NCBI GenBank assembly: GCA_964514545.1
Contig: CAZETR010000032.1
Location: 1 to 57,994, forward strand
Direction: 5' to 3'
Source of the DNA: an uncultured Gammaproteobacteria bacterium
Lineage (GTDB): Bacteria > Patescibacteriota > Microgenomatia > CAZETR01
Length of the DNA stretch: 57,994 bases
The translations under genes were made by a program, and so were the position numbers. Numbering within the stretch: position 1 is the first letter of the stretch; the number at the start of each line of letters is the position of its first letter. Below the pieces are notes generated by a model. It made no database searches. It was given only the letters and a program-made list of their open reading frames with translations, and was not told where the DNA came from. Shown piece after piece: positions 52,137-54,720 of the stretch.

Positions 52137-52832
52137 GTGGATACAATTACAATATTGAAGATGAAGATACTTATATTTTCGGATACACATCTAAACGGAA
52201 AGTTTGAGGAGAAGAAGGCGCGGTTTTTGAAAAGGATTATTACCGGCGCTGATCGGGTAATTATCAATGGAGATTTTTGGGACGGATGGCGAATAAATTT
52301 TTCCCAGTTTTTGGATTCTCCATGGAAAGAACTCTTCCCCTTGCTTAGGAAAAAACACACAGTTTATATTTACGGGAATCACGATACTGAGGGAATGTCC
52401 GACACGCGGGCCTCGATTTTTTCATCTATGAAGGCAAACAGCTGGGAGATGTCGATAGACGGGAAAACTTTCTCTTTTGAACATGGACATCGGTTGTCCG
52501 GAACTGCAGACAAGAATTTTCGTTTGGCGAAATATCAGAATGCTGCGCGCTATTTGCTGGAGAAATGGGACTCGTTGGAAGAAAGATTGGTGAGAAATTA
52601 TGGGAAAGGATACCTAAAGTACTTTTGGGGGGTAATTAATCCCAAAATGAAGTGGGAGATGCGAAAGAGATACCCTGATTCTAATTATTTGTTCTGCGGT
52701 CATTCACACTTGGCTGAGGCGGATAATAAGAGCGGGTTTTACAATACGGGTTTGATAAGGTATGGGTTGGGGCAATATATTGTGGTGGAAGATTCTAAAA
52801 TTTCTCCCAAAGAGGAGTGGTATGAAAAGTGA
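52137..52832 (+). CDS. Calcineurin-like metallophosphoesterase
   Basis: SDTH, NGD, GNHD, HGH, GHSH. Confidence 0.9.
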   Translation: MDTITILKMKILIFSDTHLNGKFEEKKARFLKRIITGADRVIINGDFWDGWRINFSQFLDSPWKELFPLLRKKHTVYIYGNHDTEGMSDTRASIFSSMKANSWEMSIDGKTFSFEHGHRLSGTADKNFRLAKYQNAARYLLEKWDSLEERLVRNYGKGYLKYFWGVINPKMKWEMRKRYPDSNYLFCGHSHLAEADNKSGFYNTGLIRYGLGQYIVVEDSKISPKEEWYEK

Positions 52833-52879
52833 GACTTTCTTGGCTAGGGAGTCGAACGGGCTGGTTTTGTATTTGTTAT

Positions 52880-53034
52880 AGCGGATCGAGAGTCCACGGG
52901 CGTGAACCCGCGGGTGAATCGGTCAAATCACATATCGGAGCGAACCCGCGTTACACGCGGGGGCGACCCGATATGAAGCAGTTCAGGCTTTCAGCCTCAG
53001 AAGAAACCCCGGGCGTAAGCCCGGGGAGCTTCAT
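52880..53034 (+). mobile_element. Non-autonomous IS200/IS605-family mini-element (omegaRNA-like), no tnpA/tnpB
   Basis: Left hairpin 52894-52913; right end gaaa-ccccgggc/gcccgggg-agcttcat 53003-53034; internal stems; left boundary uncertain. Confidence 0.7.
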
Positions 53035-54567
53035 CAAGAGTTTTTGGACCACGATTTTGCCGAGCGTAGCCTGGTCGACAAGAGTTGAATTTGCTGAGAT
53101 AGCGCTGATCCAATCGGTTCTGGGAGTTTTCCTTTCGTCGGGCTCGATAATTAGAAATACCTGGTTAGTGCATGGTTTGGTTGGGTAAGAGTAGCGGGCT
53201 AGAGGAGGGTAGAAAAGTTTGCTCGAGTTTTTGTAAGGAGCGTACTCGCATGGAAGAAAGCCGTATTTTTTGAGACCGTACCAGTGGAATAGATATTGAT
53301 AAGGGTAATCGTAAATCGAGGGAAGATAATTATAAACATAGAAGCCCTGATTTCCGCTGTGTTCGTAAACCCAGTCGATCGCTGATAATTCATTGGTGAA
53401 CAAACTTGGGTCGTCGGTGGGGCGGAAGTTTTCGGCATATCGAGAACTAAAAACATGAAGGTGGGAATAAAGACTGATGACATAGAGAAGAAGAGCCAGT
53501 TTCTTCGGAAGAAATGGTAACAAGAGAAGAAATGAGATAAAGATAAGGGGAGAGAGAAAAGAGGTATGCCAATCTCTCCAACCGGAGTTGCTGATGAAAA
53601 ACATCCACGAGATAAGCGTGAGAAGAAGAGTGAGGCTAATAAAAACCCGAGCAAAGACGCTTGATGGAGACGGCCGCAGGTTTTTAAAAAAGATAAGAAG
53701 GCTTATGCAAAAGAGAAATATCCCCAGCTCGGGAATTTCCCTGAAAGTACTGCGGGAAATAGTAATTATAAAACGCCTCGATATGTATCGGGTATTTGAG
53801 CTTTGGAATACACCTTTAGGATTATCAAGTTCTCTGAGAAAAACTCTGGATTGGGAAAAGTTTGAAGATAATTCCGAAAAAATGTGGGGGGCGAGAAAGA
53901 AAACAACTATTGCCAAAACATACAATAAATTCTTGAGGCGGACTCTTTTTTTGTGTACCAATATTATGATTACGACTAGGAAAAAGGAAGTGAGGGCGGC
54001 GGCGCTAGCTATGTCTGCGTGAAACGATAATCCAACAAAAATCGATGAAAAAAGTAAGTGTTTAAGCTCTCGGCTGCGGAAAAATTTGATGAGGCTTAAA
54101 ATCAGAAGCAATCCCAGCAAGAGCATGGGAAAGGGATTAAAGGCATAGCGGGCGGTGTCGTGAACTGTCCAGCTGAAAAGGAGATTGGCTCCGACAAAAA
54201 GGCCGAAAGCGGGAGAAATTGCAGATTTGATTTCCTTCATGACAACAAAGAGAAACAGAGTATTGAGAAGGACTAGAGATATAACTGCACTGGCTGGATT
54301 GCCGCCGGAGAGAAAGTATCCGGGAGCGAGAAGGTAAAACCACAAGGGTCCGGCGAAAAGGCCAAAGACGCTGGTTTCGGGACCCAATAGGGGAAAGCGG
54401 CCGCGAAGAAGCTCGCGGACGTGGACCGCGTCGTTGCCCTGGTCCATGGTGAAGTAAAAATTATTATTTCGAAGTGGGAGGAGGCGGAGAAGGATAAAGG
54501 TCAGCAGGATACAAATTGAGAGAAGGGTGTAGTTGCGGGTTAAAAACTTGCTAATCTTTTGTTCCAT
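52951..54567 (-). CDS. ArnT/PMT-like (GT-C fold) membrane glycosyltransferase
   Basis: FTMDQGND, LLGP, GPLWFY, WNP-like AFNP, many TMs; last 27 aa come from the mini-element. Confidence 0.75.
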   Translation of the reverse strand: MEQKISKFLTRNYTLLSICILLTFILLRLLPLRNNNFYFTMDQGNDAVHVRELLRGRFPLLGPETSVFGLFAGPLWFYLLAPGYFLSGGNPASAVISLVLLNTLFLFVVMKEIKSAISPAFGLFVGANLLFSWTVHDTARYAFNPFPMLLLGLLLILSLIKFFRSRELKHLLFSSIFVGLSFHADIASAAALTSFFLVVIIILVHKKRVRLKNLLYVLAIVVFFLAPHIFSELSSNFSQSRVFLRELDNPKGVFQSSNTRYISRRFIITISRSTFREIPELGIFLFCISLLIFFKNLRPSPSSVFARVFISLTLLLTLISWMFFISNSGWRDWHTSFLSPLIFISFLLLLPFLPKKLALLLYVISLYSHLHVFSSRYAENFRPTDDPSLFTNELSAIDWVYEHSGNQGFYVYNYLPSIYDYPYQYLFHWYGLKKYGFLPCEYAPYKNSSKLFYPPLARYSYPTKPCTNQVFLIIEPDERKTPRTDWISAISANSTLVDQATLGKIVVQKLLMKLPGLTPGVSSEAESLNCFISGRPRV

Positions 54568-54600
54568 TGAAATTTTGGTGAGCTGGGGGGATTCCCATAA

Positions 54601-54720
54601 AAAATTTGCGATCAAATTTTTCAGGGCAAGCGAGTCACAAGTTCCTCGCTTCGCTCGGCCTCGCGACTCCATCTCCCTCGCCCCGTTTTTAGTGGGGCTC
54701 AGTCCGATTAGTTCGAATCC
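54601..54720. repeat. Palindromic element downstream of tRNA-Lys ending in an inverted T-arm copy
   Basis: Nested stems (aaaatttg/caaatttt, gagtc/gactc, gcccc/ggggc); gttcgaatcc at 54711-54720. Confidence 0.55.

Follow-up and report, generated by a model that had tools for sequence, protein, structure and literature searches.

A gene-less mini-element in a Microgenomates genome is most probably a derivative of TnpA-only IS200-type insertion sequences

The 57,994-nucleotide (nt) stretch of DNA analysed here (the window; contig CAZETR010000032.1) carries on its plus strand, at positions 52880–53034, a 155-nt element that is very probably a non-autonomous, gene-less derivative of an IS200-type insertion sequence (IS) encoding only a Y1 (HUH) transposase, TnpA. 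Such derivatives are known as palindrome-associated transposable elements (PATEs), the miniature inverted-repeat transposable elements (MITEs) of the IS200/IS605 family. We favour this reading because the element belongs to a multi-copy family with common ends in 59 of 59 delimited copies, because TnpA-only relatives possess the same ends, and because of parallels with IS608, compensatory changes in the structured parts and insertion without orientation bias. The original prediction, made from the sequence alone, had likewise described a protein-free IS200/IS605 mini-element, and had further proposed that it is a complete omegaRNA (right-end element RNA, reRNA) scaffold serving a TnpB or TldR protein encoded in trans, a proposal that our analysis largely refutes.

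Copies of the element were identified with BLAST and nhmmer, and its ends were set by alignment with a second copy in the same genome (contig C31, 2263–2400). These ends are exact, as homology begins directly 3' of TTAT and ceases directly 3' of GCTTCAT. The TTAT at 52876–52879, target and left cleavage motif in one, is kept on the left flank. Along the plus strand, the active 'top' strand, there follow the 5' arm GATCGA (52884–52889) of a helix here called P2, which pairs with TCGGTC (52919–52924) around the left hairpin, and a degenerate left guide position, GAGT (52890–52893), which corresponds to the left guide (GL) of IS608, has the family consensus GAAAA and differs from C31 by a 1-nt deletion and substitutions. 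The left-end subterminal hairpin (52894–52913, CCACGGG-CGTGAA-CCCGCGG), a predicted TnpA binding site, contains one A·C mismatch, and is followed at 52914–52924 by the linker GTGAA (ATGAA in the family), paralleling the A-T dinucleotide 3' of the left hairpin in IS608, and then by the 3' arm of P2. The interior holds a nested hairpin found only in the subtype to which this copy belongs, subtype A (52931–52975; catatcgg 52931–52938 and ccgatatg 52968–52975 around cccgcgt 52945–52951 and acgcggg 52955–52961), and, in the window copy alone, an inserted 18-nt hairpin, agttcaggctttcagcct (52980–52997; aggct 52985–52989 and agcct 52993–52997), opposite which the aligned C31 sequence has a gap of 18 columns. 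At the right end, a guide position GAAA (53003–53006; the right guide, GR, of IS608 is GAAT) precedes a perfect 8-bp subterminal hairpin, CCCCGGGC-GTAA-GCCCGGGG (53007–53026). The right terminus AGCTTCAT (53027–53034) places the cleavage motif TCAT (53031–53034) 8 nt past this hairpin; within it GGAGCTTCAT is invariant, and the sequence beyond is unrelated between copies.

All stems and motifs of the original prediction are present at the positions it gave, including the complementarity between gcttcat (53028–53034) and atgaagc (52973–52979). Its assignment to the IS200/IS605 mini-elements is borne out by end hairpins on the same strand, insertion 3' of TTAT, the absence of a target duplication and a TCAT 8 nt 3' of the hairpin. 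As it also noted, the GAAA/TCAT pair of this copy mirrors GAAT/TCAA in IS608, with a compensating swap at the fourth position. Both hairpins lie on the plus strand in direct orientation without terminal inverted repeats, as in all copies of the family, and the element has no coding capacity of its own, the frames crossing its 155 nt being either those of the neighbouring gene or spurious. A 191-nt region folds at -79.2 kcal/mol compared to -57.8 ± 4.2 kcal/mol for shuffled sequences (z = -5.1), and the opposite strand folds equally well; the fold is real, but its energy alone tells neither which strand is relevant nor whether DNA or RNA is.

The host genome, a 1.10-Mb member of the Microgenomates within the candidate phyla radiation (CPR; 63 contigs, 96% complete), holds about 11 copies of the element at unrelated sites, found by a search for further mini-copies of the kind the original prediction had called for. 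They fall into three subtypes with a common architecture and differing interiors. Subtype A consists of the window copy and the C31 copy; subtype B of seven copies of 129–162 nt (C15, C23, C50, C54, C44, C53 and C42), which have the last ~37 nt in common with subtype A; and subtype C of two minus-strand copies of about 100 nt (C11:18436–18543 and C11:28030–28136), built on the same plan with other hairpins (CCCCGGTCGTCAGACCGCGGG and CCCCGACCGTCAGGTCGCGGG) and the terminus TAAATTCAT. Several copies lie at or near contig ends (the end of C15, the start of C56, the short contigs C50, C54 and C31), and as C56 opens with the same flank and element start that close C15, these repeats break the assembly and the two contigs adjoin.

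Alignment with C31 also reveals what has happened to the window copy. Its left guide has changed from GAAAA to GAGT through the loss of one base and the change of two, a T-to-C substitution has introduced the A·C mismatch into a left stem that is perfect in C31 (CCACGGG/CCCGTGG), and compensatory changes between the two copies have occurred in the internal hairpin (C:G to T:A) and in the right hairpin (A:T to C:G). With a damaged left guide, a mismatched left stem and an 18-nt hairpin gained, the window copy looks decayed, and it is probably immobile now.

We then scanned public genomes and metagenomes for the right end, using the motif CGGGCGNNAGCCCG(N0-2)GGAGCTTCAT. The motif was found at 79 loci in a species-representative genome collection, nearly all of them in metagenome-assembled genomes (MAGs) of Patescibacteria (Gottesman-, Davies-, Woese-, Roizman-, Ames-, Kerfeld-, Doudna-, Gracili-, Sungii- and Andersenbacteria and Parcubacteria), together with a few in MAGs labelled Deltaproteobacteria, Omnitrophota, Elusimicrobium or Actinomycetes, and at a minimum of 120 metagenome loci. 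Viral contigs of IMG/VR gave no match to the motif and thus no sign of a phage vector. We could delimit 59 complete copies of 45–222 nt. T[T/A]AT (TTTAT in most) stands before each of them and GGAGCTTCAT at its end, the right flanks are unrelated, and no copy shows a duplication.

Of 401 genomes of the class, 7 contain the motif, three of them in multiple copies, while a reversed-pattern control returned none; this patchy distribution is in keeping with horizontal arrival and subsequent local bursts. In 70 independent insertions, neither orientation towards the flanking genes is preferred (upstream gene, 33 same and 37 opposite; downstream gene, 34 and 35). Taken together, the lack of orientation bias and the patchy distribution are the behaviour of a selfish element. 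At the lower end of the size range stands a 45-nt form, TTTAT|CCGCCTGCGCGAGAATA-CCCCGGGCGTAAGCCCGTGG-AGCTTCAT|, in which a single hairpin separates the 5' segment of the left end from the right tail; it was seen at several unrelated sites (two in L035, and in L039, L046 and L089, with a variant in L140), and represents either a deletion product that has arisen repeatedly or a mobile unit of minimal size.

Nine contigs (L074 and L104–L111) hold full-length relatives, IS200-type elements of ~0.6–0.7 kb with the same end hairpins and a single gene, a Y1 tnpA of 147–148 amino acids (PF01797). The one in L074, a Kerfeldbacteria MAG, is the only one of the 79 genome loci with a gene between such ends; its 148-residue TnpA matches PF01797 with 112 bits, the hairpin CCCCGGGCGTGAGCCCGGGG lies upstream of the gene, and the same hairpin followed by AGCTTCAT starts 3–5 nt past the tnpA stop codon. 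The closest homologues of this TnpA (71–75% identity) reside in ~0.6-kb elements of the same design. At their left ends, full-length elements have a TTTAT, TTTGT or TTGGT flank, then TAGCAGAGCTAATA, then CCCCGGGCGTAAGCCCGGGG, and at their right ends AGATA, the hairpin and then AGTTTCAT (AG(C/T)TTCAT). The left hairpin of the elements in L105–L110 is identical over 20 of 20 nt to the right hairpin of the window copy. One full-length element occurs at at least four different sites, mostly on contigs shorter than 2 kb, and more distant TnpA-only elements of the same class (42–47% identity) retain the hairpin and the AGTTTCAT end. As the right end begins 3–5 nt past the tnpA stop, there is no room for a tnpB gene in these relatives. 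We assign the lineage to the IS200 (TnpA-only) type and regard the mini-elements as PATEs derived from it that lack the gene. Several of the full-length elements (L104, L108, L110, L111 and L074) directly follow a GC-rich hairpin and T run that resembles an intrinsic terminator.

The structures of the mini-elements are conserved through compensatory change. Across the family, such changes affect every one of the five pairs scored in the left hairpin, and three pairs in the right one. Helix P2, which encloses the left hairpin and two conserved 5-nt loops (GAAAA and ATGAA), was examined with a hairpin-anchored script; RNAalifold run on a MAFFT alignment, in which the subfamilies misalign, gave just the two end hairpins. 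Among 51 distinct modules we found 28 different pairs of P2 arms, for example TTCGCA/TGCGAA, ACGCA/TGCGT, AATCTT/AAGATT, TAAAGCA/TGCTTTA and CCAAA/TTTGG, next to GATCGA/TCGGTC in the window. The best P2 helix averages 5.4 bp, compared to 3.7 bp when the 5' flank of one subfamily is joined to the 3' flank of another, and helices of at least 6 bp form in 53% of modules compared to 6% with mismatched partners. Several P2 arms use G·T pairs, indicating that the selected fold is on the top strand; this is the strand on which TnpA acts, and is equally compatible with a plus-sense RNA. In addition, pairing is possible between a GAAGC located upstream of the right hairpin and the GCTTC that is invariant at the terminus. 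Most likely, these extra helices pre-organise the excised or exposed single strand and so make a small element an efficient substrate.

A plus-sense RNA is what the original prediction had in mind. On the omegaRNA reading, the element would be transcribed as a stand-alone RNA, and a guide of 16–20 nt taken from its 3' flank would direct a TnpB nuclease or a TldR repressor encoded elsewhere. This was reasonable beforehand, as PATEs whose omegaRNAs rely on TnpB in trans have been published for Geobacillus stearothermophilus (PMC10055086), and the element is indeed strongly structured and terminates exactly at the right-end boundary. No TnpB partner was found. Six-frame searches of the host genome gave a best PF07282 score of 12 bits, below the cut-off, and nothing for PF01385 or NF040570 (guided_TnpB), and a search for tnpA and tnpB with matching ends, as the original prediction had advised, yielded no tnpB, no TldR-like gene and no classical tnpA there. 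In 14 other element-bearing genomes the TnpB models likewise gave nothing above the cut-off, although they were positive in 7–9 of 14 control genomes, and at about 200 loci with the right end no neighbouring open reading frame (ORF) among the matches listed resembles TnpB. Metagenome ORFs of 300–414 amino acids that end near the right end were considered as TnpB candidates and rejected, each lying upstream of a complete mini-element; of the three compared with Pfam, one weakly matched a TIM barrel, one matched a cupin and one matched nothing.

Nor does the element look like an omegaRNA gene. With Rfam 15, whose coverage of omegaRNAs was not checked, cmscan at E ≤ 10 returned for the plus strand only a chance-level CRISPR-DR29 match (E = 4.5) and hence no omegaRNA-like covariance-model (CM) match; on the minus strand it returned only terminator-like near-matches (SorX, NsiR1 and others), all at the right hairpin, which are explained by this hairpin and its T run. 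There is no promoter-like site inside the element, and insertions are not biased towards an orientation that would bring read-through transcription; the random orientation of insertions argues against a conserved co-transcribed role. The element contains no tnpB-derived sequence, and the relatives offer no source for an omegaRNA scaffold formed from the 3' end of tnpB and the right end, as their full-length forms have tnpA, and no tnpB, abutting that end. Two of the three outcomes that the original prediction had said would speak against it, the lack of a TnpB and the lack of a CM match, are thus what we found, and an orphan guide RNA in the window is extremely unlikely.

For the PATE, we infer a transposition pathway by analogy with IS608. 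A TnpA dimer supplied in trans would bind both top-strand subterminal hairpins on single-stranded DNA, and the bases 5' of the hairpin feet would pair with the cleavage motifs, TTAT in the left flank and TCAT at the right tip. The top strand would then leave as a circle and insert downstream of a new TTAT or TTTAT, causing no duplication of the target. P2, closing the left hairpin with the GAAAA and ATGAA loops, and the GAAGC/GCTTC pairing, closing the right hairpin, would pre-fold the single strand. The window copy would have inserted within the final 11 codons of a gene for a membrane protein and decayed afterwards.

Several observations weigh against this account. Classical TnpA is absent from the host genome (tblastn; 96% complete) and from all seven element-bearing genomes of the class sample, and was found in only one of the 14 other element-bearing genomes. 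This absence is weak evidence, because such ISs sit mostly on contigs shorter than 2 kb that binning would lose, and the comparison across the 401 class genomes (0 of 7 element-bearing genomes against 34 of 394 others) involves numbers too small to inform. Either the TnpA supplier lies on unbinned short contigs, or the copies have become fossils with its loss. A search with the joined flanks in 60 relatives, none of them close, recovered no empty site, the empty allele that the original prediction had suggested looking for; the argument for mobility of the window lineage is confined to its multiple copies at unrelated sites. The interior of the mini-elements is unrelated to that of the full-length ISs, and the account does not explain it. 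Finally, the guides fit IS608 unevenly: the window has GAAA/TCAT on the right and the damaged GAGT, in place of the family AAAA, for TTAT on the left, and most family members, like the full-length ISs, have GATA and not GAAA as the right guide, a poorer fit to the IS608 pairing.

Another possible source of mobility is a repetitive extragenic palindromic (REP) system, in which the element would be the repeat partner of, and be mobilised or maintained by, one of four REP-associated tyrosine transposase (RAYT)-like Y1 proteins encoded in the host genome (C33:64917–65639, C41, C56:6474–7304 and C7; open frames of 215–276 amino acids). These four PF01797 genes, similar ones in 10 of the 14 element-bearing genomes and a mini-element inside such a gene in L095 are in keeping with this idea. 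The host's RAYT-like genes, however, are flanked by other palindromes, the C33 gene lying between two copies of ACAGGGTTCAACCCTGT and the C7 gene between inverted copies of GGGGACGGTCCTCAAA, and were rejected as mobilisers for this reason. Moreover, only one of 11 RAYT-like loci examined in other genomes carries the motif, and there it is an insertion; four element-bearing genomes lack any Y1 match, one of them with at least seven near-identical copies; and directly oriented hairpins in a unit of 100–220 nt resemble neither single REPs (20–40 nt) nor inverted REP pairs (REPINs). A REP/RAYT origin is therefore improbable, and we retain an IS200-type TnpA as the likely mobiliser. In L095 (166–951; a 0.9-Mb MAG labelled Gammaproteobacteria, binchicken_co266_188), the RAYT-like Y1 frame of 262 amino acids remains open through the 144-nt mini-element it contains.

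The window copy lies between two convergent genes. Upstream and outside the element is a plus-strand gene for a calcineurin-like metallophosphoesterase (52137–52832; Pfam PF12850 and PF00149), and on the minus strand a gene for a membrane protein of 573 amino acids (52951–54672) has its last 27 codons and stop codon inside the element. The original prediction had described its proposed guide, the 3' flank at 53035–53054, as antisense to the 3' end of a glycosyltransferase gene. The flank is antisense to codons of this neighbour (minus strand, ...GKIVVQKLL), trivially so; the ORF has no Pfam match at E ≤ 0.001. Joining the two flanks of the element rebuilds a tail of 11 codons, ...QKLLITNTKPARSTP and stop, and orthologues in other families of the class stop 2–4 residues past a GKIxVxxL motif located at the junction; the insertion thus replaced only a non-conserved tail, the last 11 codons, and the gene is probably still functional. 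The C-terminal ~160 amino acids of the protein are conserved in 34 of 41 related genomes.

Elements supply stop codons elsewhere, too. Upstream ORFs at C15:9079–9082 and C53:10733–10736 stop at a TGA within the element's terminal ATGAAGC (opposite strand), and the same pattern was seen in L142, L169 and L196. In the window, the copy may have been exapted as a host signal, acting now as terminator and 3' end of the membrane-protein gene: its minus strand has a terminator-like site (53026–53007) in which the right hairpin is followed by TTTCTTCT, the better Rfam near-matches are all 3' ends of terminator type from small RNAs on that strand, and the stop codon now lies inside the element. Yet this stop (52951–52953) is ~55 nt downstream of the hairpin, so that termination there would leave a non-stop mRNA unless read through, and insertions of the family have no orientation preference relative to genes. 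Such exaptation is unlikely, and would in any case be a side effect compatible with a PATE and not an alternative origin for it.

Life inside genes may have left its mark on the PATE family. Across loci L013–L091 and L128–L247 and the host genome, lengths divisible by three are found in 59 of 74 distinct sequences and in 18 of 32 distinct lengths (binomial p = 0.006, shared ancestry uncorrected), and frame 0 of the minus strand (MKLP...) is open across 54 of the 74. A strict single-indel comparison gave only four events, of 11, 27, 33 and 40 nt; the extra hairpin of the window copy, at 18 nt, is also a multiple of three. The length bias and the open frames suggest selection for tolerance inside ORFs. 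Going further, one may tentatively regard the family not as a decaying by-product but as a lineage in its own right, made up of IS200-derived mini-elements that spread horizontally and are specialised to ultra-small CPR genomes, with a self-organised TnpA substrate owed to the covarying fold (P2 on the left, the closing stem on the right), lengths of 3n, and open minus-strand frames through which insertions in gene ends or genes are tolerated as peptide insertions; we consider this possible, though doubtful as a whole. Were it true, the 45-nt single-hairpin form would be the smallest mobile unit of the family.

These findings remove a tempting wrong annotation, as the window very probably holds neither an orphan guide RNA nor a hidden RNA-guided system. 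They also link the hairpin repeats that recur in Patescibacteria MAGs, and that may readily be taken for small RNAs, riboswitches or terminators, with an identifiable partner, IS200 elements that encode TnpA alone and target TTAT/TTTAT. Recognising the family helps to annotate CPR genomes and accounts for several breaks between contigs, and its members, at 45–170 nt, could serve as very small natural substrates in work on single-strand 'peel and paste' transposition. Should the 3n length bias and open frames hold, they would exemplify transposons shaped by life in coding sequence, in genomes nearly without intergenic space.

Among known systems, the closest mechanistic parallel is IS608 of Helicobacter pylori. 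In IS608, the left cut follows a TTAC that lies 19 nt upstream of the left hairpin, and the right cut follows a TCAA that lies 10 nt downstream of the right one; guides on the 5' side of the hairpin feet (AAAG and GAAT) read these sites, and the A-T dinucleotide that comes immediately after the left hairpin engages guide and target in base triplets (PMC3201880, PMC5934647). The plan of our family, TTAT, 14–17 nt ending in GAAAA, hairpin, ATGAA ... GA(T/A)A, hairpin and AGCTTCAT, has the same subterminal hairpins on one strand, outer cleavage sites, 4-nt guide positions 5' of the hairpin feet and A-T dinucleotide, and insertion likewise causes no target duplication. It differs in its target (TTAT/TTTAT, not TTAC), its right motif (TCAT, not TCAA) and its distances (14–17 and 8 nt, not 19 and 10), and the mini-element has neither tnpA nor tnpB.

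PATEs, gene-less IS200/IS605 derivatives, are known for example from Haloquadratum walsbyi, Halanaerobium hydrogeniformans and Geobacillus stearothermophilus (PMC3119063, PMC7290912, PMC10055086), and the family resembles them in consisting only of two hairpin-bearing ends without an ORF, in being multi-copy and in its predicted dependence on TnpA in trans. Whereas the IS605-type PATEs described retain the 3' end of tnpB with the right end, and hence an omegaRNA, this family derives from IS200 elements that encode TnpA alone, and is set apart by its own interior, a covarying helix around the left hairpin, mostly 3n lengths and CPR/Patescibacteria hosts; our literature search found no published description of such elements in Patescibacteria/CPR. 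With TnpB omegaRNAs (ISDra2, ISGst; PMC8612924, PMC10055086) the window element has in common a structured, right-end-derived sequence that stops at the transposon boundary, but it lacks TnpB, tnpB-derived sequence, a CM match and a promoter-like site.

The full-length relatives, at ~0.6–0.7 kb with a single tnpA and structured ends, are much like IS200 of Salmonella and Escherichia coli, the TnpA-only group, whereas their sequences and hairpins are unrelated to it, several CPR copies follow a terminator-like hairpin and T run, and the window element is gene-less. Rickettsia palindromic elements, small hairpin-forming repeats that survive in or at the ends of protein-coding genes with the frame kept open, offer a parallel in lifestyle. 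They are not known to have a transposase, in contrast to the CPR family, which has an identifiable IS200-type partner and a TTAT target. The element in the window thus qualifies as a PATE of the IS200/IS605 family, outside the omegaRNA class.

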